A DNA stretch of 64,000 nucleotides from an uncultured bacterium (lineage in GTDB: Bacteria > Patescibacteriota > Minisyncoccia > UBA6257 > 2-01-FULL-56-20). This document shows, one piece after another, positions 21,924-57,925 of this stretch (its first letter is position 1; every line of letters begins with the position of its first letter). Location of the stretch: contig CAWJQC010000008.1 of NCBI GenBank assembly GCA_963844965.1, positions 92,185-156,184 on the forward strand, in the 5' to 3' direction. Both the position numbers and the translations under genes were made by a program. The notes under the pieces are model-generated. The model made no database searches. It was not told the origin of the DNA and saw only the letters and a list, made by a program, of their open reading frames with translations.

Positions 21924-22054
21924 CCCGTTAGAAATAGGGCGCAACGCCGCCGCTCGTCCTCTTTATTATTTAATATTCGGCCATTTTGTTGATGTAATAT
22001 CCGCAAAGCGTCCGCGCCTGCCTGCCGGCAGGCAGGATTTCTAACGGGACCCAT
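21919..22054 (-). mobile_element. MITE-like element copy 1 (TIR TCCCGTTAGAAAT; flanks ATGGG/ATGAG) between the clpB-like stop and the MFS start
   Basis: On the minus strand: ATGGG-TCCCGTTAGAAAT…ATTTCTAACGGG-ATGAG. Contains the 20-bp palindrome at 22017-22036. Confidence 0.6.
22017..22036. repeat. perfect 20-bp palindrome CCTGCCTGCCGGCAGGCAGG (copy 1 of 3)
   Basis: Identical at 31099-31118 and 38023-38042. Confidence 0.9.
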
Positions 22055-24629
22055 TACTGTTTTACTATCTGATCTCCCAGTTCCACAAAACCGACCTCGT
22101 CGCCCTGCGTCGTGAGTTTTATATGGCTCCCGTGCTCAACTTTTTTCTCCAAAATTTTCTGCGCGAGCGGCGCGCGCAATTTTTCTTCTATCACGCGCCG
22201 CAGAGGTCTCGCGCCGAACGCGGGATCATATCCGATCCGCGCGAAAAGTTTTATAACCGCCGGATCAATTTCCATCTTTATCCCCTGCTCGCTCACCAAC
22301 TCTGCGACATCCTTAAGATTCAGCGCGACTATTTTTTCCAAATCCGCCGGCTCTAAATTTTTGAACACGACAATCCGCGAGAACCTGTTCAAAAGTTCTG
22401 GTTTGAAAATGTCGGTCAGTTTTCTCTTCAGATAGTCGGCGATCTGCGCCACCGATTGACCCTGGCTCAGGGCGTCATTGATGATATCCGAATGGGCATT
22501 AGAGGTGGCGATTATAATCGTGTTCTCAAAATCAACCGTGCGGCCGAGATTATCCGTGAGCCGGCCATCGTCAAACACCTGCAAAAATAAATTCAAGATA
22601 TCAGGGAAGGCCTTCTCAAATTCATCCAAAAGGATCAAACTATACGGCTTTTGCAGAATCGCGTCCGTCAAAGCTCCGCTTACCTGGCCATCGGGCGTTC
22701 CGATAAACCTGAAAAAACTCTGCTTATCCTGATATTCCGTCATGTCAAACCTCACCATTTCCTTATCCGAACCGAATTGGACCTTCGCCAAGATTTTGGC
22801 GAGTTCGGTTTTGCCGACGCCGGTCGGACCGACGAAAAGAAAACTGGCGATCGGTCCGCCTGGCCGCGCGAGCCCGCTCCTGTACTCGCGCAGGGCATCC
22901 GCCACGACCCCCACCGCCTCCTCCTGGTCGATCATCCGTTCGTGTATTGTCTCCTCCAACTTGAGAAGTTTTTGCGCCTCGGCTTCGGTTGCCTCGTGCA
23001 GCGGAATATTTACCTTTGCTTCGGCCACGCTTACCACCCTGTCCGGCCCCACGTACTTTTCCCCGCGCCTTTGGGCGTCAACCAAAGCGCTCTTCAATAT
23101 CTCCTCGGCGCTTGAAGGCAGAAATTTACTGCGCAAATATTTTTTTGCGAGCACAACCGCCTTCTTTATCGCGCCGAAACTTATGGTTACCCTGAACTGA
23201 CGCTCGAGTATCAGACTCTCGTAGGTTAAAATTTTTTCCGCGTCGGCGACGCTCACTTCGCTCACCCTGATTATTTCAAACGCGCCAGCAAAATCGCTAC
23301 GCGGCTCTATGAACTGCTTGAAGTCGCGCGGAAAAGTGAGCCGATCACCGGAAAGGCATTGTTTGTTATTATCGGCATCAAGGCATCAGCGGCGGAAATG
23401 TACGCGGCGCCGGAGGTGCGCACCAAGTTGTGTATGTTCGGGATGTAAATGATGATGTTCCCGGCGATGGTGATTTCTTCAATTATGTCTTTGAGCCGCG
23501 CGGTCAGTACTTCGGGCGGCGCGCCCGCCACAAGACTTTCAAGCTCAAGCGACACCAACCGCTTGTCAAACAACGCCGGCGGAACTTCGTCCTTAACAAG
23601 TTCCGCGGCGAGGTGAGAAATTATGGTTTCCTTGCCGATGCCGGCCTCCCCGACCAAAATAGCGTTGGGATTTATCGGCCGCGCCAACACTTCCACCAGC
23701 CGTTCAAACTCCTCTTTGTGACCGATCAAAAAACCGGTCTGATTCTGGCGGGCAAGATCGGTAAAGTCGGTTGAATATTTATCAAGGGTAGGCGTCGGCC
23801 GCGACGTCCACGCCCTATTCATTATGCGGTGTCGTATTTTCGGAGCACCAAACACAAAAAAGCCGCCGAGCGTCACTGGAATGCGGCGACTCATACTATG
23901 ACCCAGGGAACTGAAGATCATAGCGCGCTCAAGGTCGCCTACCTCGATCCCAAAAATGTTGAAAAGTCGGCTCATGGCTTCGTTTTTGACGAGAGGCATC
24001 GCCGAAAACAGGTCACTTGATTCTATGAAGTTGTGGCTCGCGCCCATGGCCTGTTCCAAGGCCAAAAGCACGAGCGTTTCCGCGTTCGCCAATCTATCTT
24101 CTTTGGAAATCGCGGACCACTCCCCGCTTTTTGAACTCTCGCCGAGAAACGCTTCTGTTTTCTGTTTGAATTCCTCTGGTTTTACATCAAGACGCTTTAA
24201 CCCCTCTTCTATGTCGGACAAATTTAGAAGCTGATGCGCCGTTTCCAGAAAGAAATTCTGCTTGGTGATCATGCTCCGGTCAAATGCCCTCTCCAGGGCG
24301 GCGAACGCCTTCGGCCGCAGATAACTCGCCATATTAACTCTGCCTCTTTTCGGCAACTCTATAAGCGGCTTGTCGCCCTCGTTCAGGTGGAGAAAGCGGT
24401 CAAACAGGAACAAAGCGAGAAATATTCCCGCATAGCGCAGTCCCCAGACCCCGGAGAGAAGAAACGAAGCCGCCGTAGCCGCAGTCACGAGGTACATCAC
24501 ATAACTTAGAACTCTTACGAATAATCTGCCCGGAAACGTCATCAAGAGTCGCGGGTCCTTATAACAGAAAACCGGACCCTCTCCAGCGACGCCCGCTGAC
24601 GCTGTTCCTTTACTATTTTCTTCGCTCAT
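22054..24629 (-). CDS. ClpB/ClpC-like two-domain AAA+ ATPase with N-terminal membrane anchor; split by a frameshift near 23265-23310
   Basis: ORF 23307..24629 has 2 N-terminal TM helices and a first AAA+ domain D1 (ILVGEAGIGKET…IIIYIPNIHNLV; Walker A/B look degenerate). ORF 22054..23265 is a second AAA+ domain D2 with intact GPTGVGKTELAK Walker A, LILLDEFEKA Walker B and the sensor-2 motif GARPLRR. Confidence 0.7.
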
Positions 24630-24988
24630 GGAGAATAGGAATGGAAATTAGTAGCGGCGAGAATAATAATAACCGGCGGAATCAAAACCCAAACAAGGTA
24701 AATAACAAGGAACACCAATCCCAAGAATAAATAGAGAACGCCGCCGATAAGTATCCTCCCTAAACGAAAGATCACGCCGAGAACTCTCCCGACTATCGTG
24801 TAATCCTTGTATAACGGCTGGAAGAAATATTTTATGGTAAGGCGAATCGCCAAAGACTTGTCCACCTCCTCCAAGATGGAAACAAACTTATGCGCCAAAA
24901 GACGCGAGCCGTCCACGTACCAGTGATGGAAAAAATCCAAAATCCTGTAAATGGCGCGATTGATTAAATAAACCAAGGCGAAGTTCAT
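24626..24988 (-). CDS. small membrane protein (hypothetical), translationally coupled upstream of the Clp-like ATPase
   Basis: 120 aa, two TM helices; ATGA overlap. Confidence 0.35.
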   Translation of the reverse strand: MNFALVYLINRAIYRILDFFHHWYVDGSRLLAHKFVSILEEVDKSLAIRLTIKYFFQPLYKDYTIVGRVLGVIFRLGRILIGGVLYLFLGLVFLVIYLVWVLIPPVIIILAATNFHSYSP

Positions 24989-25119
24989 TTATTTAAATTA
25001 TACCCGTTTGAGCCCAAGAGAACAAAAGATGCGCACGAAGGACGAAAATAAAAAAACCCGCGCATTGGTGCAAGCAATGGCGAGTATTCATATGAACACC
25101 GACTATCTCCACGGACCAA

Positions 25120-25521
25120 TCACTGTCTTTTCAGTTTGTGTTTTTCGCAACGCTTCACGAAAAGACTTGTCGCGCAAATCGCGCCATCGGGTAGCCGTAC
25201 CAAAAATGGGAGAGATTCGGTAAAATAGAATAATCCTGTGTAATCTATCCACGAACCAAGCAAGCCGAATAGCATGTACTCAGGATCAAGCCCTTTCGTT
25301 TTGTAGAAAGCCAGAAGCTCTTCAAACGTAAACTGCGTCCAACGACCCTTTTCCTGGAAGAAACGGACCAGTGCCACGGCGGCTTCTTCCACCTCGCACT
25401 TTCCGAACGTCTCTGAAAGTCCGTCGGAGAGATCAATATCGCTTGGCCTGGTTTTTTGGCTTGGTTTGTCGGCGGATTCACTGATCACACTAAAACTAAC
25501 CCCCTCTGCTGTTTTAAACAT
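25120..25521 (-). CDS. hypothetical protein
   Basis: 133 aa ORF, no recognisable motif. Confidence 0.3.
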   Translation of the reverse strand: MFKTAEGVSFSVISESADKPSQKTRPSDIDLSDGLSETFGKCEVEEAAVALVRFFQEKGRWTQFTFEELLAFYKTKGLDPEYMLFGLLGSWIDYTGLFYFTESLPFLVRLPDGAICATSLFVKRCEKHKLKRQ

Positions 25522-25596
25522 AACACCTCCTTCACACTACAAGCTAAGCGCAGATTAGCATATCGGCAATTTATCTGTCAAATTCGTCGCCGGGTT

Positions 25597-26238
25597 TTAA
25601 AACAACTTCGGCTGCGGCGGTTTCTTCGGCTTAGTTTCTTTCGCGGCGACGGCACCCGGCATTATGACGGTGAGCGGTGATTCTGTAAGAAATTTTCCCG
25701 AAACGATGTCCGGAAGCTTTTTGAAATCATCGCGGAGCTGATTCAAAACTTCGGTGGAGCGCAAGGCTGCTGCCGTGTGAAAAAGAGGAATGACCAGCCG
25801 ACCGTCAACTTTAAAAACCTTCCCGTGATCTCTTGAAATTTTGGCTTCGGGCAAAAAATAATTCATGGCGAACCGCCCCACGGCCGCAATGATTTTCGGG
25901 TTGATTATTTCAACCTGCTTTGTCAGATATGGCTTATATGCCTCAATTTCGTCCGGGCTAGGGTCGCGGTTCTCCGGCGGGCGGCGCTTGACAATGTTCG
26001 TGATATATACATTCCCACGCTTCCAGCCGATTGCTCTGATAAACTCGTCCAAAAGTTGCCCGGCGCGACCGACAAACGGCCGCTTGAGGCGGTCTTCGTG
26101 AAACCCCGGTGCCTCGCCAATGAACATAACTTCGCAATCGGGATTGCCTTCGCCGAAGACCAAATTCGTCTGAAGTGGCAGGGACTTGTCGGCGGCGATT
26201 TCGGCTTCAAGTTTTTTGAGTTCGTCGTCTTTGCTCAT
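25597..26238 (-). CDS. uracil-DNA glycosylase, family 4
   Basis: MFIGEAPGFHEDRLKRPFVGRAGQLL (GEAPG motif). Start at MSKDD (plus cat 26236-26238), downstream of a terminator. Confidence 0.75.
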   Translation of the reverse strand: MSKDDELKKLEAEIAADKSLPLQTNLVFGEGNPDCEVMFIGEAPGFHEDRLKRPFVGRAGQLLDEFIRAIGWKRGNVYITNIVKRRPPENRDPSPDEIEAYKPYLTKQVEIINPKIIAAVGRFAMNYFLPEAKISRDHGKVFKVDGRLVIPLFHTAAALRSTEVLNQLRDDFKKLPDIVSGKFLTESPLTVIMPGAVAAKETKPKKPPQPKLF

Positions 26239-26333
26239 ATCAGAAATTATACACGAGTTCATTTTTTGTAGTAATACCGGAAAATTATCGTGACACTGAA
26301 ACGAAAGATGGCAACGTAAATCTTCCCAACGTA

Positions 26334-26369
26334 AAAAGCCGGTCGCCTGAGGCGACCGGCTTTTTATTT
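26334..26369. terminator. bidirectional Rho-independent terminator
   Basis: AAAAGCCGGTCGCCtgaGGCGACCGGCTTTTTATTT. Confidence 0.75.
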
Positions 26370-26389
26370 GCTGTCGCGACAGCAAATCG

Positions 26390-26671
26390 TTAGAGTATCG
26401 CTTCCTTCGCGGCTTTGGCAACGCGGAATTTCACAACCGTCTTCGCCTTGATCTGGATCTGCTCGCCGGTTGCCGGATTTCGTCCCATTCGGGCCGCGCG
26501 GTGCTTCTTCACCAGTTTTCCAAATCCAGGAAGAGAAAACTCGCCCGCGGATTTAACCTGGCCGTAAGCAATCTCAGCAAGAGTGTCCAAAAACATTCCC
26601 GCCTGCTTTTTTGACACCTCGGCTTTCTCGGCAAGCTTCCCCAAAAGCTCCGACTTCGTCATTTTCGCCAT
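26390..26671 (-). CDS. hup: DNA-binding protein HU
   Basis: 93 aa. …GFGKLVKKHRAARMGRNPATGEQIQIKAKTVVKFRVAKAAKEA is the HU/IHF arm signature. Confidence 0.85.
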   Translation of the reverse strand: MAKMTKSELLGKLAEKAEVSKKQAGMFLDTLAEIAYGQVKSAGEFSLPGFGKLVKKHRAARMGRNPATGEQIQIKAKTVVKFRVAKAAKEAIL

Positions 26672-26797
26672 GAGTTTGGTTTTGAATTAAATTTATGCCG
26701 ACCTTGTGTATATGTATATTATATAACAAATCAGGGCTTGCACACAAAGCGGCTTATATGCTAAAACACAATCAGTAAAAATTGGCAGGAGAATAAG

Positions 26798-28003
26798 GTG
26801 AAAATCGAAATTGCCTTCAAGGATTTCAAACTGCAATCCCTGAACGCGCTCCCGGTGGGAAAACGCATCCAGCGGATATCTTTGGGGATCAAAAAGGGCA
26901 TGGATTACCCCCGCGGTAAGGTTGGCAAATTCATCTTATCGCAATTCGGCACCATACACCTCGTAAGTCCGCTTCTTCCGGAAAGCATAGTCACGACAAA
27001 TTACGCGCTTTGCAATGAGGCGAGAGAACTGCTCGGCGAAATGTATGAATCCTGTGGCAAAGAAGCGCCGAAGGTGGCCTGCGGGAGTAGGGTAATTCCC
27101 GGTTCAAGCTTCGAAAAATCACGGCGTTTGGAAAGAAATGGTGTCGTTATCCCATTTTCCGGCGGGAAAGACGGCGCGCATCATTACCTGAAATCCATGA
27201 AATCCGGTCTTACCCCGCGCCTTGTCCATATTCGCAACATGAACCTCGCGTCCACTTCTGAAGAATTCGCGTGGGCGGGAAAACTTTCAAGTTTTCTTGA
27301 GGAAGATCTGGACATAATTCATCTGCACAACGGCGTACCCAAGAACGGCTTTGACACCATGAGATTCCGCGACATGTTCCTCGTCGCTCTGATGATCCCA
27401 TATAACCTCAAATACGGCGCCGAAAAAACGATCATAGAGGGCTTTGCCGACGAACTTGAGGGCAACATGGAGCTTTTCAGCGGCAAAGAAAGTGAAATGA
27501 AAAAATTTAACGAGCTGCTCAACGATTTGGGATTCCCGATAAAAATTTCGTGGTACAACATGCCGGAATGGCGAGTTTTGAAATGGCTGATCCTGAACCA
27601 TCCCGATGTTCTCGCGAATACTAACAGCTGTTTCGCGTATCCACTCTTGAAACTCCAGCAGAAGGATAGGGTAAAAGAACTTTTTCCCGGCTTCCCTTTC
27701 TTTGAAAGCCAATGCGGAATGTGCTTCAAGTGTTTCATAGTGAACCTCGCGCGAATCGCTTTTGACGACGTAGATTGTCCGGCAGAAATTTTGAGAAGAT
27801 ATGTAATTACCGCCGATGCGTGGCTTGCGAAGAAAATCAAGAATTTGGGCGCGTATTACAATGACCCGAGTTTTTCCCGCCTGCTCGCGCTAACCAAACA
27901 AAAGATACAGACAGTTCAGCCGCCGACCAAGGGTCCGGCGGTTTTAGTTTTCGGCCGCGCGCCAGAAATCCTCTTATTGCGCCCCGGCGGTATTCCGTGT
28001 TAA
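26798..28003 (+). CDS. PP-loop (adenine-nucleotide alpha-hydrolase superfamily) ATPase with C-terminal Cys cluster (QueC/TtcA-like), GTG start
   Basis: PFSGGKDGAHH PP-loop (SGGxD) motif; C-terminal CGMCFKC. Confidence 0.45.
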   Translation: MKIEIAFKDFKLQSLNALPVGKRIQRISLGIKKGMDYPRGKVGKFILSQFGTIHLVSPLLPESIVTTNYALCNEARELLGEMYESCGKEAPKVACGSRVIPGSSFEKSRRLERNGVVIPFSGGKDGAHHYLKSMKSGLTPRLVHIRNMNLASTSEEFAWAGKLSSFLEEDLDIIHLHNGVPKNGFDTMRFRDMFLVALMIPYNLKYGAEKTIIEGFADELEGNMELFSGKESEMKKFNELLNDLGFPIKISWYNMPEWRVLKWLILNHPDVLANTNSCFAYPLLKLQQKDRVKELFPGFPFFESQCGMCFKCFIVNLARIAFDDVDCPAEILRRYVITADAWLAKKIKNLGAYYNDPSFSRLLALTKQKIQTVQPPTKGPAVLVFGRAPEILLLRPGGIPC

Positions 28004-28117
28004 AAATTAAGCAGCAAAATTAAAGTCGCTGGAGCGGATAATGAGCAAGAAACACCGGAAAAATAAGCGGTTATTAGGACTATCTACTGTTCAGGAAGGA
28101 AACCGCGGGAGCGTGCC

Positions 28118-28411
28118 ATGCGATGGCTGATTACACTTAAAACCGAAGATGGCCTTATCGTACCCTGCCGGCTCATGAATGCGTTCCGCTGCAAGGGATT
28201 GAAAATCGTGACCTTGGCCATGGCGGCCCGGCCGTGTGGCTATTCCATGATGGCGGTCGTGGAGCCACCGGAAGGCGCTGACGCCGACTACATCTTTAAC
28301 TTCCTGCGCCGCATGGGGGGCGTTCAGAGTGTTGTTATCAACAAAAAACCACCATCAGCAGAAAAAGAGGAGTACGAAATTGTTTTTTTCGCGCCGCCTG
28401 CGCCAAAGTAG
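28118..28411 (+). CDS. hypothetical protein
   Basis: 97 aa ORF. Confidence 0.3.
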   Translation: MRWLITLKTEDGLIVPCRLMNAFRCKGLKIVTLAMAARPCGYSMMAVVEPPEGADADYIFNFLRRMGGVQSVVINKKPPSAEKEEYEIVFFAPPAPK

Positions 28412-28444
28412 GCGGCTTTTTGTTTTGTCGCACAAACACGCAAA

Positions 28445-28519
28445 AAATTAAATTGGTGCCCCCGCGAGGAATTGAACCTCGACCACCTCCTTCGGAGGGA
28501 GATATTCTATCCGTTAAAC
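28445..28519 (-). tRNA. tRNA-Arg (anticodon CCG), CCA encoded
   Basis: Minus strand: GCCCCCG acceptor, anticodon stem TCTCC/GGAGG with loop CTCCGAA (anticodon CCG), T-arm CGAGG-TTCAATT-CCTCG, CGGGGGC-A-CCA. Confidence 0.85.
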
Positions 28520-28538
28520 TACGGGGGCTGGCTTTGAG

Positions 28539-28609
28539 CTTACTTTACCCCCACACCCAACAGCAAGCAAGTTTTCTGCTTACAGTTACTTGCTGTCAGG
28601 TGTGGGGGC
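28539..28609. repeat. long imperfect hairpin (about 25-bp stem) between the transporter gene stop and tRNA-Arg
   Basis: CCCCCACACCcAACAGCAAGcAAGT…ACTTGCTGTcaGGTGTGGGGG. Confidence 0.6.
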
Positions 28610-29729
28610 TTACAATAAAATAGTAGACCCCGTAAATTGCAGCAAGTATGAACACAAGCGAAATCACGTTCAAGAGAATTCGTTTCACGCCGCCGATCTG
28701 GAGAACTTTTTTCCCGACCAAAATTATCAAGAGATACTGCAAGCTCAAGAACACGCCGCCGGTGAGGCCAATCACGTTAGCGAAATTATTCAAACCAAGG
28801 TAAACCAGAGCTAGCGGCAAAAGAAGCGTAATTCCAAGGCCTAATCCTCGCGACAGGCGCAGGTCGTTAACGAGCGAGTGCTTGATCTCCAAACTTATGG
28901 GTAAATGCGAGGTCCAGATCGCGAAGATGCCCATAACGGCGAGCAGGGCAATTTTGTAGCCCGGCCAGCCGATGAGCCCAGACAAAGTATCCGATGTGAT
29001 CATGGACGATGAACCGAAAATTCCCACGACAAACATAAGATACAGCACCGCGACGATCGCAGTTCCCGCGGCCAGCGCCAAATACGGCTGAGCCGCCGGC
29101 GCAAGGTCGGATTTCAATCTCCTCTCCGTGTCAAACACCGGCTCAACCGCGGTCCAGCCGGCCAATGCGAAAAGGATCGCGCCGAAAGGAAAAAAAATAT
29201 TCCTGAAATTGACGGCGTGAGCGGCAGACAACGCCCCGACCGGATTTGAAGAAAAAAAGATGAAAAATATTATGGCTGCGGTTAAAATTATTCCTAAAAT
29301 TTCCAAGTTAAGACCGCGGCGTTCCTTAAGTAGGAGCGGCAACGCTGTCACAAACCAAAAGATGGGTAAAGCCAGTGCCACAGGCACAAAAGGAAACAAT
29401 AATCTGACGAACTGACCTCCCAAAATCAAATAAGCGACAAGCGCCAAGATCAAGCCTCCCAATATCACGAACAATCCAACGCCAAAACCCAATCTGCCAA
29501 GGTATCCGCGCGAGAGGCCGAGCAATCTGTTCCTCTCTTTAACTTTTTCCAAGACGCGGAAATACAAAGCGTGAGCGGACACGACAATCGCCGAAAAAAT
29601 CAGCAAATAAAAAAGGCCGGTAAACCATCCGGCCGCGAGAAACACGTAAGGCAGTGCGAAAACTCCCGCTCCGATAGTCGCCGCGGCCGCAAGCCCGGCT
29701 TCTTTCACGAAACTTTTTAGCGGACCCAT
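28596..29729 (-). CDS. amino-acid permease-like polytopic membrane transporter
   Basis: 377 aa, about 11 TM helices. N-terminal KSFVKEAGLAAAATIGAGVFALP resembles aromatic/APC-type permeases. Confidence 0.5.
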   Translation of the reverse strand: MGPLKSFVKEAGLAAAATIGAGVFALPYVFLAAGWFTGLFYLLIFSAIVVSAHALYFRVLEKVKERNRLLGLSRGYLGRLGFGVGLFVILGGLILALVAYLILGGQFVRLLFPFVPVALALPIFWFVTALPLLLKERRGLNLEILGIILTAAIIFFIFFSSNPVGALSAAHAVNFRNIFFPFGAILFALAGWTAVEPVFDTERRLKSDLAPAAQPYLALAAGTAIVAVLYLMFVVGIFGSSSMITSDTLSGLIGWPGYKIALLAVMGIFAIWTSHLPISLEIKHSLVNDLRLSRGLGLGITLLLPLALVYLGLNNFANVIGLTGGVFLSLQYLLIILVGKKVLQIGGVKRILLNVISLVFILAAIYGVYYFIVSPHT

Positions 29730-29769
29730 TGAGGATTTACCGATTACTAATTGCCAATTTCCAAACTAG

Positions 29770-30033
29770 TTATTCCGCCCCAAAAACCTGGTCTCCTTCC
29801 CGGACCTTGCCCTCAACTTTAATGCCGACTTCCTGGCCCTTTTTTGCTGACTCTATCGGTTTGTGGTCGTACTGCATTGATTTTATATCTTCCGTAAAAT
29901 CGGTTGTCGCGCCCTTATAGTGGAGTTTTGCGCCAACGTCAACCTTCTTATTGAATTTAACGATGGCAACCTCCAAATTGCCGAAGTAGTGGGTCACCTC
30001 CCCGATCGGTTTTGGTTCCGAAGATTTTGGCAT
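29770..30033 (-). CDS. hypothetical small protein
   Basis: 87 aa. Confidence 0.3.
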   Translation of the reverse strand: MPKSSEPKPIGEVTHYFGNLEVAIVKFNKKVDVGAKLHYKGATTDFTEDIKSMQYDHKPIESAKKGQEVGIKVEGKVREGDQVFGAE

Positions 30034-30128
30034 TGTATTATTGTTAATCGCTCAGCGCCAAGCACGTATCACACAATTCGCAGTTCGCACTTTGCGCTTA
30101 GCCAATAAATTTTCGACCTTTGCTCAAT

Positions 30129-30722: not shown

Positions 30723-30854
30723 GGTCTAAGTATAACAAATATAAAAAATAATTCGAGCGTTGAACACTCTATAACTTTCCAATTTCTGTCCGGCGCGACG
30801 CGAAGCTGGCCTTTTTCGTAGATGCGTCTTATGTGGTGCTCGCAAGATTTAAAA

Positions 30855-31134
30855 TGAACTACCGCCGCTTAAGAGCGGTGGTATTAGAACTGCCACGCCT
30901 CGCACGCAACCAGATTTTACATCACTTAGCATGCGGTAGTTCACCCCGCCCCCACTTTTACTTATGACACTTGCGATTCTTTTTCCGTGTTGATGGCACA
31001 AACCTATACATTTTTCTCCTGACGTTTTAAGTAAAAGTGAGGCGGGGTTTATGTTTTCCATTCCGCAATCCTGCCCCGCTCTACTGGCGGGGGGGTATTC
31101 CTGCCTGCCGGCAGGCAGGCTTGCGGGGAAAACA
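30855..31134. repeat. hairpin-dense noncoding block: three consecutive long imperfect stem-loops plus the 20-bp palindrome (candidate structured RNA or degenerate MITEs)
   Basis: Inverted-repeat pairs: 30855-30864 with 30932-30941; 30943-30960 with 31030-31046; 31050-31067 with 31120-31134. Inner hairpins at 30859-30880 and 31072-31092. Palindrome at 31099-31118. The 30849..31142 track ORF is probably spurious. Confidence 0.5.
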
Positions 31135-31143
31135 TAAAACAAA

Positions 31144-32525
31144 TTAAGTCAGTTCAACTTCTTCTCCTGCCTTCGGCACTTCGGCGAGAACCGCGAAGTC
31201 GTCCTTGATTTTAGTGGCCAAGGCCTCGCTTGCGCCTTCCTCGCCCTGCACGACGAAAACTTTTTTAAGCGTTCTGCGCATTGGTTCAAGCCATTTCAAA
31301 AGCAACGGCTGGTCGGCGTGCGCGGAATAACCGCCGATTACCACCTTCCTGCAACGAACGGGGACTTCTTCCCCGAAAATTTTTACAGAGGTGGCGCCGT
31401 CAAGAATCTGCCTGCCGAGCGAGCCCGCCGCCTGATATCCGACAAAGAGAATCGTATTTTTCTCCCCGGGAAGGTAGCGCAATTCGTGATGCAGGATCCT
31501 TCCACTGTGCGACATGCCGGAACCGGCGACAACGACTTTCGGCGGCGGCACGTCGTTGATTTCTTTGGATTGCTCCGTGGTAAGCGTGAGCCGCAAGCCG
31601 GGGAAATTCAGGATGTCATCGCCGGAATGCGCCAATTTTTCCGTTTCGGGATTGAAATAATTCTCGTATTTTTTATAAATCGCCGTAAGTTTTATGGCTA
31701 GCGGGCTGTCAATGAAAACCGGTACTCGCGGCACTCTTTTTTCCGTAAACAACTGGTGCAGGTGGTATAGAAGCTCCTGCGTGCGTTCCATCGCGAACGT
31801 CGGTATGAGCAGCACGCCCTTCCGCCTCACGGTGTCTTCAATCGCGTCCTCAAGCATTTCCCTGCGCTTGTCTATCCCCTCGTGAACCCTGTCACCGTAC
31901 GTGGACTCAATCAGACAATAGTCGGCAGAATTTATCTTTTCCGTCGGTTGAATTATCGGCGCGGGATAATTTCCGAGGTCACCGGAGAAAACAACCGTTT
32001 TCCCCTCGGCGATAACTTTTATTATGGCTGAACCCAGTATGTGTCCCGCGTCAAAAAGCTCAACCCGCCAGCCCGAGGCCGGTCCGCCTCCGGAGGAGAA
32101 ATTGCCGATACTCAACCGGCGTGTGGTAATCAAGTTTCCGCCACAATTTCATCAGTTCAAATATATCCTGCGTAGTGTAGAGCAACGGTTTTTTCTCCCG
32201 TTCCGCTTCCTGGGCCAATATGTGCTCCGAATCTAAAAGCAAAAGTTCTGCGAAGTCTTTTTGTCGCGGGCGTGGAATAAACCGTTCCGCGGAAACCATC
32301 TTTCCAAAGTTTGGGTAAAAGACCTATGTGGTCAATGTGCGAATGGGTTATGAAAACCGCCTCTACGTTCTTGGGATCGTAAGGAAACGGTTCAAAATTT
32401 CTGCGCTCGGCATAATGGCCTCCCTGGTGAAGTCCGCAATCAATCATAATCTTTTTCCCACCCGACTCAAGAATATAGTTGGCGCCGGTAACCTCGCCGA
32501 CGCCACCATAGAAAGTTAAACGCAT
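31144..32525 (-). CDS. rnj: ribonuclease J-like (metallo-beta-lactamase / beta-CASP / RMMBL) protein, split by two frameshifts (about 32290 in an A5 run, and about 32110)
   Basis: HxHxDH motif (ITHSHIDHIGLLPKL) in frame A; KDFAELLLLDSEHI… in frame B; beta-CASP/RMMBL body (…VVAGSGMSHSGRILHH…GGYSAHAD…) in frame C. Confidence 0.75.
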
Positions 32526-32587
32526 TCTTAAATTGTAAATCTCCTTAATGATAAAAACAAAGCGCGTTGACGCAAATTTGTGTGAAG

Positions 32588-33898
32588 TTATCGATGCCCG
32601 CTCTTGAGTGTCTCCTCAACGACAAGTCGTTCGTTCCAGGGAATTTTTTCGCCTTTTTCTATATGAATCCAGTCCTCGCTTCCCTTGCCGGTCAGCACAA
32701 CAACGTCGCCGTTTCTGGCCACAGAAACCGCTTTCTTAATCGCCTCGCGCCGGTCGGTAAGTTCCCTTGTCGCATATCGCTTGTCACTTGTCACTCCGGA
32801 TTTTATCTCCGATAAAATCTGGCTAGGATTTTCGTCGTATGGGTCTTCGTTCGTCAGAATAATTTCATTGCAATATTCGGCGGCGATTTTTCCCATTTCC
32901 GGCCGCTTCCACCTGTCTCTGCCGCCACCCGCCGCCCCGAGAACACATATCAACTTGGACCTTGGAACTTTCAAAAAAGAATAAACTTTTTTTAATGAAT
33001 CCGGCGTATGGGCGTAATCTATAACAACCGAGAACGGGGTTCTTTGCACAAATTCCATCCTCCCCGGAACACCGCGGAAGGATCGTATCGCCTCTCTCGT
33101 CGCGTCTTCGCCGACCCCGATATCTCGCGCTACCGCAACGGCGGCGGCAATATTTTCTTTATTGAAATCTTCCAGCGGAAATTCACTGCGTGAATTGTCG
33201 GCGGCAACCCGAAGCGGACCTCGCCGCGGCAATAGCCGAGAAACATTCCCGTCATTCACCGAATACGCGGCTGGTCTGAATTTCTTGAGCGCATCAAAAA
33301 AGAAACCGGCGCTCTTATCCTCCGCATTGATGAAAATCTTTCCGCCCTTCTCGCCCACATAGCGCAAGAAATCAAGCTTGGCCTCACGATATTTTTCAAA
33401 AGAACCGTGCGCTTCAATGTGCTCCGGAGCGAGATTTGTCAAAATCCCCATATTCCAATTCACGAACAGATGGCGCGACAAAATCACGCCCTGCGAAGTG
33501 GCCTCAATCAACGCATACTGGCAATCGGCGCGGACTGCTTTACGCAAGAAGCGTTGAATGTAGGCGCGGCCTGGCATACTGTTTCCCGTTGGGTTCTTCT
33601 CGGAGCGATCGCCGATTTTCACGCGAAGCGACGAAAGCAGGGCAGTTTTTTTGCCCGCCGCCTCTAGAATTGCGTTCAAAAGTTCAAGAGTCGTCGTCTT
33701 GCCCTTCGTGCCCGTTACGCCGACCACAAAAATATTCCTGCTTGGAAAACCGCAAAAAACTGCGCCGAAAAAAGCCCAAAGGAAATGGTAAAGCCAAGCC
33801 GCGCCCGACAAATTATAGAAAAACCCGACCAGGGGAAAATTTTTTATTTTCTCCATCATAAATAATGACCGGCCAATAAGATTGCTAAACTTTACCAC
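32588..33898 (-). CDS. Mur ligase family protein (MurE/MurT-like)
   Basis: VVGVTGTKGKTTT P-loop and IDYAHTPDS motifs of Mur ligases. Confidence 0.65.
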   Translation of the reverse strand: MVKFSNLIGRSLFMMEKIKNFPLVGFFYNLSGAAWLYHFLWAFFGAVFCGFPSRNIFVVGVTGTKGKTTTLELLNAILEAAGKKTALLSSLRVKIGDRSEKNPTGNSMPGRAYIQRFLRKAVRADCQYALIEATSQGVILSRHLFVNWNMGILTNLAPEHIEAHGSFEKYREAKLDFLRYVGEKGGKIFINAEDKSAGFFFDALKKFRPAAYSVNDGNVSRLLPRRGPLRVAADNSRSEFPLEDFNKENIAAAVAVARDIGVGEDATREAIRSFRGVPGRMEFVQRTPFSVVIDYAHTPDSLKKVYSFLKVPRSKLICVLGAAGGGRDRWKRPEMGKIAAEYCNEIILTNEDPYDENPSQILSEIKSGVTSDKRYATRELTDRREAIKKAVSVARNGDVVVLTGKGSEDWIHIEKGEKIPWNERLVVEETLKSGHR

Positions 33899-34466
33899 TC
33901 AGAATCTTAAGCGCAGCCTTCAACCGTTCTTCCAAATTAACAATTTTCTCGTCAACTTTTCCGAGCGCTGCCTTGGCCTGTTCGCGGCGGTAGCCCAAGC
34001 CGACGAGCGTCTCAACGAGGTCAGCGTCAACCTCCATTTTGCCCACGGCAATCTCGGATTTTTCTGATTGTACTTTGCTCTTCAATTCCAGAATAATCCG
34101 CTCGGCCGTTTTCCTGCCGATCCCCGACGCGCGCGTGAGCAAATCCGGTCGCCCCTCTTTGATGGCTGCCGCCAAATTTTTCAGCTCGGCAACTTCCATT
34201 ATAGACAACGCCGACTTCGGCCCCACGCCGGAAACGGAAATCAATAGCTCAAAAAAGTTCAATTCGGCTTCCGTCAGAAATCCGTAGAGTTCCAGTCCGT
34301 CCTCGCGCATATGCAAATGACAGAAAAATTTAACGGCCAAGCCAATGGGTGGTAAAGCACCCAGCGTGCGACCGCTTACAAAAACCTTGAGCCCCAATCC
34401 AGCCGCGTCCACAACCGCGAAGTGTTCGCTCTTTGACATCAGTTTGCCCGAGACGCTGTAGAGCAT
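33885..34466 (-). CDS. ruvA: Holliday junction branch migration protein RuvA
   Basis: …LYGFLTEAELNFFELLISVSGVGPKSALSIM… are RuvA HhH motifs. Confidence 0.85.
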   Translation of the reverse strand: MLYSVSGKLMSKSEHFAVVDAAGLGLKVFVSGRTLGALPPIGLAVKFFCHLHMREDGLELYGFLTEAELNFFELLISVSGVGPKSALSIMEVAELKNLAAAIKEGRPDLLTRASGIGRKTAERIILELKSKVQSEKSEIAVGKMEVDADLVETLVGLGYRREQAKAALGKVDEKIVNLEERLKAALKILSGKV

Positions 34467-34622
34467 ACCCAGTAGAGGAATTTCGAATTATAACTTTCGG
34501 CTTTCTCGACTAAGCCGTTGACTTGTTCCCGTTGCGCTGATGGTGAAATTGTCCATAAAATAGGTGTTCGGCAGTAGGCGTTCGAAATTCTCCTACTGGG
34601 CATAATTCAATTATACGGCTAC

Positions 34623-34650
34623 TTGCACTTTTTTTCATATGCCATATACT
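34623..34650 (+). promoter_or_regulatory. sigma70-like promoter for rpsT (TTGCAC-16-TATACT)
   Basis: Located 10-38 nt upstream of the rpsT ATG. Confidence 0.45.
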
Positions 34651-34660
34651 GAAACCTAAC

Positions 34661-34936
34661 ATGCCCATCACCCAGTCCGCAAAAAAAGCCATGCGCCAGA
34701 CGAGAAGGCGGTACGCAAGGAACCTCATCAAAAAAGAGGCCTATAAAAAAGCGGTAAAAAATTTCAGGAAACTGGTCGTAGAAAAGAAAGTGGAGGAAGC
34801 AAAAAAAATACTGCCTGCGGTTTATAAAGCACTGGACAAAGCAGCTAAAACAAACGTTATCGCGAAGAATAAAGCTTCGCGGCTCAAGTCGCGGCTTTCT
34901 CATCTGATAGCCAAATCAACCAAGACCTCCTCGTAA
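34661..34936 (+). CDS. rpsT: 30S ribosomal protein S20
   Basis: MPITQSAKKAMRQTRRRYARN…NKASRLKSRL. Confidence 0.9.
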   Translation: MPITQSAKKAMRQTRRRYARNLIKKEAYKKAVKNFRKLVVEKKVEEAKKILPAVYKALDKAAKTNVIAKNKASRLKSRLSHLIAKSTKTSS

Positions 34937-35721
34937 TCCAATTTCCCGGATTTTACCTTAAGATCATATTCCGCCATCTGCGGAACTCTCTCGCGCCAGC
35001 CGGAAGCCAAAATATTAAATATCTTGGGCGGCGGGTCGCCAATCGCAAAAAGTTTTTCAAGCGCTGCGATACGGGTTTTCAAATCCTGGCTTTTCAGTCC
35101 GCCGAATAACGCCCAGTAGTCGGGCGCTATTTCCAAATCCAAGTCGGCCAAGTCCTTCTTGTCAATAATGCCGCTTTTTAAGTTTCTGATTTTTTCAAGC
35201 TCGGTCACGAGTCCCCAGGTGTTATTCTGATAAACCGCGGCAAGGAATTTAAACGCGAAATCCGAAAATTCCAACCCAAGTTTTTTCGCCCGTCCCCTCG
35301 CGAATATTTCCCATTCATAGCCGGTCAAAAATTCAAATTTCTCCGCTGTCGCGGTCGGCTTTTCAATCAAAAAATCCAGGGCCTTGTTGGGCTTCCCTTT
35401 TTCCGAGCACAGAACAATTGTATCTTTTTTTGCGACAATTTCGTGGAGCACATCCTTTATTTTTTCCTCGTCCGCCTCATAAAGATTTTCCAAAATTGCC
35501 AGTTTCTTGCTCTCTCCTCCGGAGGCGGATCCGCCTACGGCGGAAAAAAGTGGCTGCGCGCGAGCGAACCCCCTGAATTCCTCAAGTGTATCTTTTCCCT
35601 CCTCGGCAAAATCAAATGTCCGCACGCTCAGGGCGGAGTATTTTTTCTCAAACTCCTTTATATACCATCTCTTTTTTTCTTCCCGGCGATAATCGTCCGG
35701 GCCGTAGAGGAAAATTATCAT
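34900..35721 (-). CDS. holA: DNA polymerase III delta subunit
   Basis: MIIFLYGPDDY… N-terminus and overall HolA-like length. Confidence 0.65.
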   Translation of the reverse strand: MIIFLYGPDDYRREEKKRWYIKEFEKKYSALSVRTFDFAEEGKDTLEEFRGFARAQPLFSAVGGSASGGESKKLAILENLYEADEEKIKDVLHEIVAKKDTIVLCSEKGKPNKALDFLIEKPTATAEKFEFLTGYEWEIFARGRAKKLGLEFSDFAFKFLAAVYQNNTWGLVTELEKIRNLKSGIIDKKDLADLDLEIAPDYWALFGGLKSQDLKTRIAALEKLFAIGDPPPKIFNILASGWRERVPQMAEYDLKVKSGKLDYEEVLVDLAIR

Positions 35722-37364
35722 TTTTTGATTGCCACTTTGATAAATTCTTTAAATAATGGATGCGGGCTAAGAGGGCGTGATTTCAATTCTGGATGAAATT
35801 GCGTTCCGACAAAGAATGGGTGCTTATCGTGCGGCAACTCGGCAATTTCCATTAGACGCTTATCCGGGGAAATGCCGGAGAAAATAAGGCCGCGTTTCTC
35901 AAGGCGCGAAATATAGGCGGGATTCACCTCGTAGCGATGGCGATGTCGCTCGGAAATATGCGTCATGCCGTAGGCGCCGCACGCTATGCTGTTCGCTTTT
36001 AAGATGGCCGGATACGCCCCGAGCCGCATCGTGCCGCCGTAGTTTTTTACCGCCAACTTCTCTTTCTGCTCGGGCATTATGTCAATCACAGGATACGGTG
36101 TTCTGGGATTGATTTCCGTCGTGTCGGCGTTCTTTAATTTCAAAACATTCCGCGCGAATTCAACAACCGCAAGCTGCATGCCGTAACAAAGACCGAAATA
36201 GGGAATTTTATGTTCGCGGCAGTATTCTATCGCTTTTAATTTACCCCTGACGCCGCGGCTACCGAAGCCGCCGGGAACTATTATGCCGTCATAATCGCCG
36301 AGTTTTTTAAGCTCGCGCGCGCTCCGCTCAAATTTCTCGGCATCAAGCCACGTTATTTCCGGCCTCACGCCCCAGAAAGCAGAAGCGTGCTTTATGGATT
36401 CAATCACGGAAATATAGGAGTCAGTAAGGACAAAGTTGCCGCTGCCGAAGTATTTGCCGACAATGCCAATCTTCGCCACTTTTCGCGAATTCTTAACAGC
36501 ACTGGAAAAACGGCGCCAATCTTTTAAATCCCTGCGCCTCGATTTAATTCCAAGTTTTTTTGTAATCCTGTTCCCTAAATTGTCCTTCTCAAAATTTATC
36601 GGCACATCATAAATACTTTCCACGTCTGGTGCAGAAATAACATTTCCTTTATCAATGCTACACATAAATTCTATTTTCTCTTTTCGTTTCCCGTCCAGCG
36701 GAACCGCCGCGCGTCCCAAGATAAAATCCGGATGAATGCCGACCGAATTCAAATTTCTCACGGCGTGTTGCGTTGGTTTCGTTTTCAATTCGGTGCCGCC
36801 GGCGCCCAATGCCGGCAAGAAACTTACCAGGATCAGAACAACATCCTGCGGCTGGCGCAGCTTAAGCATCCTCACCGCCTCAAGAAAAAGAATGTTCTCG
36901 TATTCCCCGACCGTTCCGCCGATTTCCGTAATGGCGATGTCCGCCTTTTCCTTGACCCGCGCCTTTTCAATTCTGCCTATCACCTCGAGCGGAATTCTCG
37001 GGACCACCTCCACCTGCCTGCCTCCATATTCCAAATTTCGTTCTTTTTGTATCACCGAAAGATAGATGCTTCCGGTCGTCATGTAGTTCGCGCCGGTGAG
37101 GTCGCGGTTCAGAAATCTTTCGTAGTTGCCCATATCCTGGTCGCACTCCGTGCCGTCGTCCAGAACAAAAACTTCGCCATGCTCCGTGGGATTCATTGTG
37201 CCGGCATCAACGTTCACGTACGGGTCAATTTTTATCGCCGTTACTTCAAAACCATAGGACTGCAAAATTTTCCCGATGGACGCCGAAGCCACGCCCTTGC
37301 CGACGCCCGACATCACGCCGCCGACAACGAAAATGTATTTTGGATTTACTTTTCTTTCTGGCAT
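35718..37364 (-). CDS. pyrG: CTP synthase
   Basis: KYIFVVGGVMSGVGKG…GLCYGMQ…GTQFHPE are CTP synthase / glutamine amidotransferase signatures. Confidence 0.9.
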   Translation of the reverse strand: MPERKVNPKYIFVVGGVMSGVGKGVASASIGKILQSYGFEVTAIKIDPYVNVDAGTMNPTEHGEVFVLDDGTECDQDMGNYERFLNRDLTGANYMTTGSIYLSVIQKERNLEYGGRQVEVVPRIPLEVIGRIEKARVKEKADIAITEIGGTVGEYENILFLEAVRMLKLRQPQDVVLILVSFLPALGAGGTELKTKPTQHAVRNLNSVGIHPDFILGRAAVPLDGKRKEKIEFMCSIDKGNVISAPDVESIYDVPINFEKDNLGNRITKKLGIKSRRRDLKDWRRFSSAVKNSRKVAKIGIVGKYFGSGNFVLTDSYISVIESIKHASAFWGVRPEITWLDAEKFERSARELKKLGDYDGIIVPGGFGSRGVRGKLKAIEYCREHKIPYFGLCYGMQLAVVEFARNVLKLKNADTTEINPRTPYPVIDIMPEQKEKLAVKNYGGTMRLGAYPAILKANSIACGAYGMTHISERHRHRYEVNPAYISRLEKRGLIFSGISPDKRLMEIAELPHDKHPFFVGTQFHPELKSRPLSPHPLFKEFIKVAIKK

Positions 37365-38155
37365 TTAGGACAAAAATAAGATGACCTTCCGCCAATTTTT
37401 ATTTTCTTTATTTTAGCACAGCACCGAAAACATTTCTCACCCTCGCGATCATAGACCTTACGGGAATCCTGGTAATAACCCGAACTGCCGTCGGTCCGGC
37501 GGTAATCACGCAGCGTAAAACCGCCCTTTTTGATGGCTTCGCGGAGAATTTCCTTGATTGAACGCACCAAACGCACGATTTCCCGACTCTTTAGCGCGCC
37601 ACTCCGTCGCATTGGGTGGATTTTGGCTGTCCATAGGCTCTCATCCGCGTAAATATTGCCCAATCCGGCGACGAGCCGCTGGTCAAGTAGTGCCGATTTT
37701 ATCAGCTTTTTCCTGCCATACAGCAATTCACCCAGCTTTTTAGCATTAAAATCCTTTGAAAGCGGCTCTACTCCCGGTTGCGGAAGCGATTGCGCATCGG
37801 TTTGCCACTCAATCGTGCCGAAACGCCGGGCGTCAACGAACCGCAAAACCGAACCGTCGGAAAAATAAAATCTCGCCCGTTCGTGCGGCATCCTTTCCGG
37901 GCCTAGCCGCATTTGCCCGGTCATGCGGAGGTGGATAATGCAACGTAAACCATTCTCAAAGCTAAGGATTATAAATTTCCCGCGGCGGCGCACAGAAACG
38001 ATTTCCAGCGGCAAAACAAAGCCCTGCCTGCCGGCAGGCAGGCGCGGCTTCCCGATTTTCTTCACGTCAAAAACCGCAAACTTAATCAATTTTTTGCCGA
38101 CCAAGATGTGCGAGAGCTCGCGCGTTATGGTCTCAACTTCCGGAAGTTCGGGCAT
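37346..38155 (-). CDS. mutM: formamidopyrimidine-DNA glycosylase (Fpg/MutM); carries the 20-bp palindrome in-frame (…KPRLPAGRQGF…)
   Basis: MPELPEVE N-terminus (Pro2 active site) and a C-terminal zinc finger (CFRCCAKI…CPKC). Confidence 0.85.
   Translation of the reverse strand: MPELPEVETITRELSHILVGKKLIKFAVFDVKKIGKPRLPAGRQGFVLPLEIVSVRRRGKFIILSFENGLRCIIHLRMTGQMRLGPERMPHERARFYFSDGSVLRFVDARRFGTIEWQTDAQSLPQPGVEPLSKDFNAKKLGELLYGRKKLIKSALLDQRLVAGLGNIYADESLWTAKIHPMRRSGALKSREIVRLVRSIKEILREAIKKGGFTLRDYRRTDGSSGYYQDSRKVYDREGEKCFRCCAKIKKIKIGGRSSYFCPKCQKEK
38023..38042. repeat. perfect 20-bp palindrome CCTGCCTGCCGGCAGGCAGG (copy 3, inside the fpg coding region)
   Basis: Identical to 22017-22036 and 31099-31118. 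Confidence 0.9.
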
Positions 38156-57887: not shown

Positions 57888-57925
57888 AAAACAGCTTTTC
57901 GCGCGAAAAGCTGTTTTATGTTATT
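57888..57925. terminator. bidirectional Rho-independent terminator
   Basis: AAAACAGCTTTTCgcgcGAAAAGCTGTTTTATGTTATTT. Confidence 0.75.

Follow-up and report, generated by a model that had tools for sequence, protein, structure and literature searches.

A 20-bp palindrome of invariant sequence is inserted as an exact unit in bacterial and viral DNA and is linked to a GIY-YIG nuclease/tRNA cassette

We analyzed a 64-kb stretch of DNA from an uncultured patescibacterium (GenBank assembly GCA_963844965.1, contig CAWJQC010000008.1, positions 92,185 to 156,184; hereafter, “the window”), in which a perfect 20-bp palindrome, CCTGCCTGCCGGCAGGCAGG (hereafter, P), occurs three times. P is an inserted 20-nt unit that creates no target-site duplication, it is restricted neither to this genome nor to the candidate phyla radiation (CPR), and it is tightly linked to a cassette in which a small GIY-YIG nuclease gene is flanked by an intact tRNA gene on one side and by a partial copy of it on the other. 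The reading that we favor, and to which we assign a probability of roughly 60%, is that P is a 20-bp insertion module, invariant in sequence, belonging to a selfish system able to cross phylum boundaries, with the nuclease/tRNA cassette as its coding form and solo copies as the commoner form.

Exact copies of P were found at positions 22017–22036, 31100–31119, and 38023–38042 of the window. A preliminary description of this DNA had reported the same three identical 20-mers, with the second placed one base too early (31099–31118), and had judged them to be far above chance. In agreement with this, P was matched in 0 of 100 dinucleotide-preserving shuffles of the window, and its frequency was far from the k-mer expectation. 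A search for copies with one or two mismatches had also been suggested; none was found in the window even when up to three mismatches were allowed. P is free of stop codons in every frame, and both strands read alike, as PACRQAG, LPAGRQ, or CLPAGR. The features concerned are as follows (no strand is given for the palindrome):

22017–22036, P copy 1, 18 nt past the stop codon of a minus-strand ClpB-like open reading frame (ORF; 22054–23265), at the inner edge of the 3′ terminal repeat of E2
21921–22051, plus strand, E2, an element of ∼130 nt with terminal inverted repeats ATCCCGTTAGAAAT / ATTTCTAACGGGA, carrying P copy 1
47361–47480, plus strand, E3, a sister of E2 without P, representing the empty site for copy 1
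17962–18080, plus strand, E1, a third, more divergent element of the E2/E3 kind, without P
31100–31119, P copy 2, solo, 25 nt past the stop codon of a minus-strand beta-CASP ORF (31144–32133)
31049–31138, plus strand, structured element around copy 2, with an outer stem TTTATGTTTTCC...GGAAAACATAAA enclosing a hairpin CCCCGC...GCGGGG and P
38023–38042, P copy 3, in fpg, spanning codons R38 (third base) to G45 (first base)
37346–38155, minus strand, fpg/mutM, 269 aa, whose similarity-search matches carry PF01149, PF06831, and PF06827 and reach 69% identity in the closest homolog

Copy 1 had been assigned to a repeat resembling a miniature inverted-repeat transposable element (MITE), and it does lie in an element of ∼130 nt with 14-nt terminal inverted repeats (E2). 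When P is removed from the 3′ part of E2, this part aligns with E3 without a gap over the junction (GCAAAGCGTCCGCG / ATTTCTAACGGGAC versus GCAACGCATCCGCA / ATTTCTAACGGGAT), so copy 1 is an exact gain of 20 nt. Copy 2 had been described as lying in a hairpin-dense intergenic block; the DNA fold of the intergenic region (30930–31145) had a minimum free energy of −49.2 kcal/mol (z = −6.66) and contained two long hairpin structures, and in this predicted fold the P hairpin immediately adjoins the 3′ strand of the enclosing stem. As a separate observation, E1, E2, and E3 (∼120–130 nt) have 14-nt terminal inverted repeats in common (ATCCCGTTAGAAAT / ATTTCTAACGGGAT) and divergent interiors, with P in E2 only; they may be either a MITE-like family or a structured RNA.

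Copy 3 is translated as part of Fpg (...KPR-LPAGRQG-FV...). In an alignment with the 24 closest homologs (54–71% identity), seven extra residues were present solely in the window protein (KPR-LPAGRQG-FVLP versus RPRLxLP). Deletion of exactly 20 nt destroys the fpg frame, so the net insertion is 21 nt (seven residues), that is, the 20-nt unit requires one additional base to be in frame. In the AlphaFold model of Fpg (mean pLDDT, 84.9), residues 29–49 form a lower-confidence coil between strands 22–28 and 50–58, so the extra residues are predicted to lie in a loop. The preliminary description had placed copy 3 in frame in a loop that is variable among homologs and had called fpg essential. The in-frame position was borne out; the segment is more than variable, however, in that it is a seven-residue insertion absent from all 24 homologs, none of which encodes these residues with or without the palindrome; furthermore, fpg is a repair gene that is not known to be essential. 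Because the window contains no GIY-YIG nuclease gene, its three P copies are solo insertions: one in the MITE-like element, one in the structured intergenic element, and one in fpg (+21 nt).

Similar insertions were found within long ORFs of low-GC genomes. P lies inside the PF01580 domain of FtsK, the PF02934 domain of GatB, and the PF16363 domain of RfbB, and in all three the domain match extends across the insert. It also occurs in the ORFs of a sortilin-like protein and a PMT-family protein. In RfbB (dTDP-glucose dehydratase), the insert has 15 residues and consists of P nested in a decayed copy. The LPAGRQ frame was used in 10 of the 10 credible coding cases (Fpg and a phage gene included), and by our own calculation the chance that nine further cases share the frame of the first is ∼5e-5. 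Selection against the two Cys-containing frames is a possible cause of this bias.

Pairs of filled and empty sites gave the same picture as copy 1, in that neither a target duplication nor a deletion was present at P. In 15 parsed cassettes, taking exactly P out of the partial tRNA copy yields the sequence of the intact copy, and the other inserts are mostly 19–20 nt long. A phage contig (L125; loci are cited by our numbers, with the prefix L) has gained 42 nt in frame relative to its relative L127, with P nested in an older P-like hairpin; we read the host gene as one of the tail-assembly-chaperone type. When P is inserted into another P, the latter is always split into 11 and 9 nt (L018, L042, L182, and L225). 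These precise pairs agree with one option of the preliminary description, a short palindromic mobile element, as do the invariance of P across phyla and viruses and the control searches described below.

In a scan for exact P that covered one genome per species, P was identical in at least 120 genome loci in about ten phyla. The matches listed include CPR bacteria (Saccharibacteria and many Patescibacteria/CPR classes), Bacteroidota, Omnitrophota, Planctomycetota, Verrucomicrobia, Elusimicrobia, Bdellovibrionales, Desulfobacterota, Nitrospirota, Thermodesulfovibrionales, Chloroflexi, and unclassified “Gammaproteobacteria.” Among the Bacteroidota are cultured isolates, namely Winogradskyella, Flagellimonas, Longitalea, Flavivirga, Aquiflexum, Aestuariivivens, and Agriterribacter. 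In the IMG/VR database, P was found in 35 viral-contig stretches, several of which carry multiple copies, with a maximum of six within one 29.5-kb contig. The flanks of the P loci are unrelated to one another. Two composition-matched control palindromes (one with its arms swapped and one with a symmetric base change) had 0 matches each in the viral contigs. When the 8-bp stem was fixed and the loop left free, the loop was CCGG in 42 of 56 cases, and single-base derivatives, some of which occupy an identical site in related phages, made up 9 of the remaining 14. The loop is retained, so the whole sequence of P is conserved, beyond a foldable stem. Variants with one to three edits and variants in unit number surround this invariant form.

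It is practically negligible, in our estimation, that P is a sequencing, library, or assembly artifact. The window assembly does contain single-base frameshifts (in polA and the beta-CASP gene) and is to that extent not free of errors. However, P occurs in assemblies from many laboratories, platforms, and assemblers; the record names point to short-read contigs from SPAdes and MEGAHIT, Canu “tig” contigs, complete chromosomes, and isolates. In addition, reading frames are preserved only when P is counted within the gene, and related phages carry a point-mutated P at the same site (L136 versus L165/L166).

The preliminary description had also offered a protein-binding site under selection. P might indeed be such a site, or an intrinsic terminator, with an independent origin or separate selection in every genome. 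In favor of this, the palindrome is perfect and has a GCCGGC core, stop codons precede window copies 1 and 2 by 18 and 25 nt, and at some loci (L040 and L072) A-tract/T-tract flanks resemble a bidirectional terminator. However, a terminator scan left copies 1 and 2 unflagged and flagged the intragenic copy alone, through a chance T-rich tail. Intergenic P was not significantly enriched after gene 3′ ends (19% versus 13% within 50 nt, p = 0.14), and in the cassettes the tRNA gene downstream must be transcribed through P. Since the matched control palindromes are absent, and since it is not credible that more than 150 lineages came to an identical 20-mer independently, we consider this explanation very unlikely.

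The repetitive extragenic palindromic (REP) sequences, their bacterial interspersed mosaic elements (BIMEs), and the REP-associated tyrosine transposases (RAYTs) are closer in kind. They share with P short GC-rich palindromes that are mainly intergenic, sometimes clustered as hairpins, and non-autonomous, and a candidate trans-acting nuclease gene that is flanked by the repeat. P could on these grounds be a REP-like repeat moved by a RAYT or an IS200/IS605-type Y1 transposase, or a minimal MITE of a conventional insertion sequence (IS): it is multi-copy in places (three in 64 kb and six in the 29.5-kb viral contig), it clusters with other hairpins in a BIME-like manner (L011 and L016), and IS200/IS605 elements likewise make no target duplication, use DNA hairpins, and follow a strand-specific rule, which for P is an A before it in 39 of 39 cassettes. 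Nevertheless, REPs are imperfect (20–40 nt), lineage-specific, tagged with GTAG/CGTC, and served by an HUH Y1 enzyme, whereas P is perfect, tagless, identical across phyla, and linked to a GIY-YIG gene. The flanking bases of 128 P copies contained no conserved tetranucleotide and no GTAG/CGTC tag, and, unlike in IS200/IS605, no Y1 transposase, left and right ends, or fixed target tetranucleotide were seen. When the ORFs of ≥ 100 aa from 155 P loci were compared all against all by BLAST, no transposase-like family recurred, and the only matches were phage structural genes shared by related phages; the GIY-YIG gene was the sole recurrent neighbor. In the window itself, the Pfam scan of the ORFs found no Y1 (HUH) transposase, and the sole Rfam match at the gathering score was a tRNA-Arg, with none at any P site. 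Membership among MITEs was rejected because P has no internal segment, its exact 20-nt gains involve no target duplication, and its half-sites do not bracket cargo. A transposase-driven origin of this kind is, in our judgment, highly improbable.

Three side observations concern the surroundings of P. P is often found amid short tandem 7–9-nt repeats on both sides, such as AATTACG, TCTAAAA, GGTGAGA, and TCTCGTCTCTCGCT, in Bacteroidota, Planctomycetota, and phages (e.g., L082, L101, L121, L129, and L142). Apparent 7–8-nt direct repeats flank P in L045 (TTCGTCA), L123 (CACAGAGA), and L139 (TTGCGGA). A viral contig (IMGVR_UViG_3300025106_000007; L154, 3915–4142) ends in an array in which a 21-nt P-like unit, CCATGCCTACCGGCAGGCAGG, is repeated at least 10 times in tandem, with five further P-like variants in the preceding 2.4 kb, several of them within ORFs.

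The link to a nuclease came from a search for recurrent small ORFs in P loci. A GIY-YIG ORF of ∼80 residues begins 13–32 nt from P in L037 (WWE3, MEWB01000001), L060 (Thermodesulfobacteriota), L106, L118 (Chitinophagales), and L152 (viral); in L060, the GIY-YIG/P insertion is in frame in hsdS, and in L077 a P variant occupies the corresponding position beside a GIY-YIG ORF. In the reverse test, an alignment of seven P-adjacent GIY-YIG proteins (A2) was used to collect relatives from metagenome contigs by protein similarity alone, which yielded 77 non-redundant loci. Exact P was present ≤ 130 nt upstream of the ORF in 40 of these and a variant (≤ 3 edits) upstream in 15; exact P lay downstream in 3, a variant downstream in 4, and neither was present in 15. 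P or a variant was found beside the nuclease gene in 62 of the 77 loci (81%), a figure that holds for the subfamily nearest to a query built from P-adjacent genes; basal clades either have no P or carry other hairpins. A search for a GIY-YIG gene had been among the suggestions of the preliminary description; it gave none in the window and, at loci elsewhere, a family of small GIY-YIG proteins tightly linked to P.

The order of parts in the cassette is constant. It begins with a leader and the 5′ part of a tRNA gene (A), followed by P, the next 5–16 nt of the tRNA (B), a short spacer, and the GIY-YIG ORF. It ends with the leader repeated and the intact tRNA (A-B-C), which starts 0–15 nt past the ORF stop codon or overlaps it by ∼10 nt. 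The nuclease gene is usually immediately upstream of the intact tRNA gene and sometimes downstream. The distance from P to the ORF start is 10–78 nt, presumably a 5′ leader. The tRNA isotypes are Leu, Arg, Lys, Phe, Asn, Gly, Val, Ser, Met, and Gln. By our own reading of 39 cassettes, the position of P is the 3′ end of the D-loop in 28 cassettes, an earlier D-loop site in 6, the border of the anticodon stem and loop in 4, and a site ahead of the D-stem in 1. On the ORF strand, P follows an A in all 39. The duplicated segment begins at tRNA position +1 in 14 of 29 cases and otherwise mostly up to 11 nt upstream, with two long extensions that represent tandem units. With a start at +1 only in this fraction, an origin of the segment at the RNA level is not supported. 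Mirror-image cassettes, in which the intact tRNA is followed by the ORF and then by a partial 3′ tRNA copy with P, and tandem units with a period of ∼300–330 nt were also found. The partial tRNA copy and P are both nearly intact, and the partial copies are near-identical to the adjacent tRNA.

The nuclease clades track the identity of the tRNA, and P is common to nearly all of them. In the basal clades, P is missing or another hairpin occupies the same D-loop site, e.g., CCCGCCCGAACGTACCGTTCGGTACGGGCGGG; the hairpin types distinguished in cassettes are P, GCCCGCC..GGCGGGC, and CCCGCCCG..CGGGCGGG. In L176 and L184, the flank of P is an inverted copy of the D-loop, resulting in longer perfect palindromes. 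Viral contigs contain cassettes as well as solo P. Among the matches listed in the genome scan, four P copies adjoin an intact nuclease ORF (L037, L060, L106, and L118), and a few further copies lie in tRNA fragments (L015, L030, and L085) or, in L099, next to an ORF truncated at the contig end; they were identified by eye and with a simple motif screen. The isolate Agriterribacter humi YJ03 likewise carries P in a partial tRNA-Arg. Roughly 90% or more of the genome-scan copies have neither a nuclease gene nor a tRNA fragment. In the open-access full-text literature, P and its 12–18-nt substrings occurred in no relevant context, and no description of an association between palindrome, GIY-YIG gene, and tRNA was found.

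Several loci had unusual arrangements around these genes. In a Saccharibacteria metagenome-assembled genome (MAG; L093, 4650–5250), a GIY-YIG ORF of the same family lies in a 23S rRNA intervening sequence of the helix-25 type, as read from the conserved flanking rRNA, and the intervening sequence is bounded by the stem GAGCCCTAC...GTAGGGCTTC. In a Patescibacteria MAG (L015, 4000–4230), P, ∼35 nt, and a complete tRNA-Met gene are located between the 5′ and 3′ parts of a tRNA. An insert of ∼170 nt that carries P separates an intact tRNA-Val from a 19-nt copy of its 3′ end in L039 (1090–1290), and in L010 (3000–3450) a different GIY-YIG gene is split by an element of ∼190 nt with the ends GGGGACTGTTTTC / GAAAACAGTCCC.

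The P-linked proteins have 78–88 residues and a single domain, and match only PF01541 in Pfam (E = 1e-14 to 1e-17); NCBIfam and PHROGs contained no specific family for them, and Pfam detected no separate DNA-binding domain such as the one that gives I-TevI and the Seg proteins a long asymmetric target. When solved structures were searched with a profile, the search placed the UPF0213 proteins first (1ZG2, 8.6e-14; 1YWL, 1.1e-12), followed by SLX1 (3e-6), with I-TevI marginal. SLX1 is a structure-specific nuclease. On the basis of these profile matches, the protein is classified as a stand-alone UPF0213/SLX1-like GIY-YIG domain, and it has the features of the prokaryotic Slx1-like group, i.e., a minimal stand-alone domain with 1ZG2, 1YWL, and SLX1 as its closest structures. 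In a 2006 survey of GIY-YIG proteins (PMC1564403), the prokaryotic Slx1-like proteins were described as minimal stand-alone domains with an unknown role. The same survey reported a unique GIY-YIG insertion into HsdR, regarded the domain as able to invade new loci, and raised the question of whether further members are molecular parasites; it mentions neither a tRNA linkage nor a palindrome.

Under the reading of P as an insertion module, a solo copy would enter intergenic DNA, other repeats, or, if the frame is regained through one or a few additional bases, genes, giving LPAGRQ in loops. In the coding form, the ORF and the tRNA would be co-transcribed from a promoter upstream of the partial tRNA copy; we infer co-transcription because there is no room for a promoter between the ORF and the tRNA, and P would consequently not be an efficient terminator. 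The GIY-YIG nuclease would recognize P, hairpin junctions, or both, or would cut there, and would mobilize P in this way. It is taken as the acting enzyme because the site beside its gene is nearly saturated, P is rare elsewhere, and the A rule is strand-specific. A blunt hairpin or duplex might be ligated into a nick or break and then replicated, which would produce an exact 20-nt gain without duplication. The cassette rebuilds an intact tRNA gene and leaves a P-bearing pseudo-copy; no P is seen in the functional tRNA copy, presumably because insertion there would be lethal. The invariance of P across phyla may reflect its fit to the enzyme together with horizontal spread that includes phages. 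Alternatively, cuts after the conserved A in both tRNA copies could release a unit running from P to A, or a circle of ∼330 nt could integrate in a Campbell-type manner.

We also considered a more specific version, in which P is a 20-nt “hairpin transposon,” the smallest mobile DNA dependent on an autonomous element so far known. The SLX1-like nuclease would excise P and insert it at hairpins or junctions in single-stranded or transcribed DNA, by nicking, blunt-hairpin ligation, and replication. The gene for the nuclease would travel as a ∼330-nt cassette that restores the tRNA gene into which it moves, and phages would carry both P and the cassette from phylum to phylum. This version is tentative and somewhat unlikely to be correct; if true, it would be transposition chemistry without known precedent and would provide a role for the uncharacterized bacterial Slx1-like proteins.

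P may instead serve the cassette. According to this explanation, P is only a cis-element, either a 5′ hairpin that would stabilize the mRNA of the nuclease or a heterology that would act as a barrier to deletion by leaving the two direct tRNA repeats too short for it, and the solo copies arose by an unrelated host process such as template switching, gene conversion, or fragment capture at breaks. The position of P in the presumed 5′ leader, 10–78 nt upstream of the ORF start, is consistent with this, as is the probable co-transcription of the ORF with a tRNA that lies 0–15 nt from, or overlaps, its stop codon. P also divides a direct repeat of 25–50 nt into arms of at most ∼24 nt and of 5–16 nt, and the commonest variant (C13 to T) retains a G-U pair on the ORF strand in most cassettes. 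However, the loop is conserved too, which an RNA hairpin would not need; exact insertions of P occur at sites that have nothing in common, both genomic and in phages; the great majority of the genome-scan copies adjoin neither a nuclease gene nor a tRNA fragment; and no known host process yields the same 20-mer in ten phyla. We regard a purely cis-acting role as unlikely.

This cassette-serving role is one of several points that weigh against P as a module moved by the nuclease. That the nuclease moves P is something that we infer, and the model has to invoke a ligase or a repair step as well, since GIY-YIG nucleases are not known to transfer strands. A profile search (hmmsearch) gave no GIY-YIG match in the 64-kb window, so the nuclease link is an extrapolation for this genome, and the value of 81% pertains to the subfamily nearest to the query. 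The base 5′ of P is A in 55% of solo copies versus 47% expected, and in 0 of the 3 window copies. A strict bulk test for P insertion exactly at stem-loop junctions was negative; a fold-based junction test gave 19.5% versus 11.4% (p = 0.003), a moderate loop-side enrichment obtained post hoc. The net coding gains of 21, 42, or 45 nt and the flank statistics of the solo copies are not accounted for by the model, and no single mechanistic model accounts for everything.

Other selfish systems resemble P in part. Rickettsia palindromic elements (RPEs) are selfish palindromes of about 100–150 bp in protein-coding genes and are confined to Rickettsia. Both RPEs and P are palindromes that lie in frame in genes and are translated as extra surface segments; in contrast to RPEs, P measures 20 bp (with net gains in genes of 21, 42, or 45 nt) and is spread over many phyla. 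In the mitochondria of yeasts, other fungi, and sponges, GC clusters and hairpin elements coexist with free-standing endonuclease ORFs. They are, like P, small GC-rich hairpin modules in AT-richer genomes, mainly intergenic and occasionally genic; the hairpin elements of sponges are the subject of PMC2800124. These elements are organellar, variable in sequence, and often associated with short target duplications, whereas P is bacterial or phage-borne, invariant, and tied to one nuclease family. T-even phages have free-standing GIY-YIG homing endonuclease genes, e.g., SegB in the tRNA gene cluster of T4. The P-linked gene has the catalytic domain of such endonucleases (PF01541) and, similar to SegB-type genes, is a small selfish GIY-YIG gene beside tRNA genes in which the functional copy is uninterrupted. 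Seg proteins and I-TevI have a DNA-binding domain and belong to the UvrC/I-TevI branch, whereas the P system combines a bare Slx1-like domain of ∼80 residues with a partial tRNA duplication and the palindrome. The specificity of nuclease clades for tRNAs and the near-identity of the partial copies to the adjacent tRNA would be indirect signs of homing, in which the P-linked nuclease would cut the allele without the cassette at a specific site and gene conversion would follow.

If the link is causal, the widespread bacterial Slx1-like (UPF0213) GIY-YIG proteins would gain a role as nucleases of selfish elements, and a very small mobile module that crosses phylum boundaries would be defined. The reading would also explain the odd 7- to 15-residue “LPAGRQ” insertions in conserved proteins, among them Fpg, FtsK, GatB, and RfbB, and the truncated “pseudo-tRNA” fragments beside tRNA genes in CPR, Bacteroidota, and other genomes, and its mechanism could be tested directly with one 80-residue protein and a 20-mer. 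P and the cassette can serve as annotation markers for pseudo-tRNA fragments, spurious short ORFs, and in-frame inserts, and as signs that DNA has recently passed horizontally between phages and hosts of very different kinds.

The P loci gave several other leads. In an Uhrbacteria MAG (L038, 3160–3800) with a diversity-generating retroelement (DGR), a P variant, CCTGCCTGCCGGTAGGCAGG, lies directly against the end of the variable repeat and, through a C-to-T change, provides the target gene with its stop codon; 150 nt beyond the variant, before the template repeat, is a perfect P. L010 has a reverse transcriptase (RT) and an Avd-like gene, and no template/variable repeat pair stood out there in the repeat search. 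L038 is suggestive of a DGR hairpin; however, the RT of L125, one of the three loci with an RT, is of the group II intron type, and most loci had no such RT in the ORF clustering. Genes for Avd/four-helix-bundle proteins (“23S IVS protein”) numbered eight in seven distinct loci, which we estimated to be not clearly above chance. A second palindrome, TCCGCCAGCTGGCGGA, co-occurs with P in seven loci; it was rejected as a partner element because it shows no link to the nuclease and its occurrences in viral contigs are mostly ordinary coding sequence of high GC content.

The remaining observations concern the window itself. Near copy 1, the ClpB-like gene (22054–23265) comprises, according to Pfam, the C-terminal half only (AAA_lid_9, AAA_2, and ClpB_D2-small); beside it, a 440-aa ORF (23307–24629) had no Pfam match, and an ORF of the major facilitator superfamily (21282–21944) has about half the usual length. 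The metallo-beta-lactamase/beta-CASP gene (31144–32525) is broken by a 1-nt shift near 32110, and polA (39630–42151) appears as two ORFs through frameshifts, one of them at an extra T in a T-run near 40325; the splits represent either pseudogenes or assembly errors of the homopolymer type. A second GC-rich hairpin motif, TCCGCC-loop-GGCGGA, arranged as a double hairpin around GGATCC, occurs within ORFs at 35513–35547, 49447–49481, and 32071–32099. TCCGCCAGCTGGCGGA is a perfect palindrome related to this motif, which appears to add about 10 residues (SSGGGPASGW) to the beta-CASP gene product. Inverted repeats of the AATTTTCAATTTT type lie 120–147 nt apart, and there are perfect palindromes of 30 and 22 nt (regions 42833–43032, 57888–57917, and 26366–26387). 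An 83-nt direct repeat (59238–59320 and 59376–59458; 99% identical, with a spacing of 138 nt) lies in a minus-strand ORF region, and a strong 40-nt hairpin (38200–38239) is located just upstream of fpg, before the next gene.

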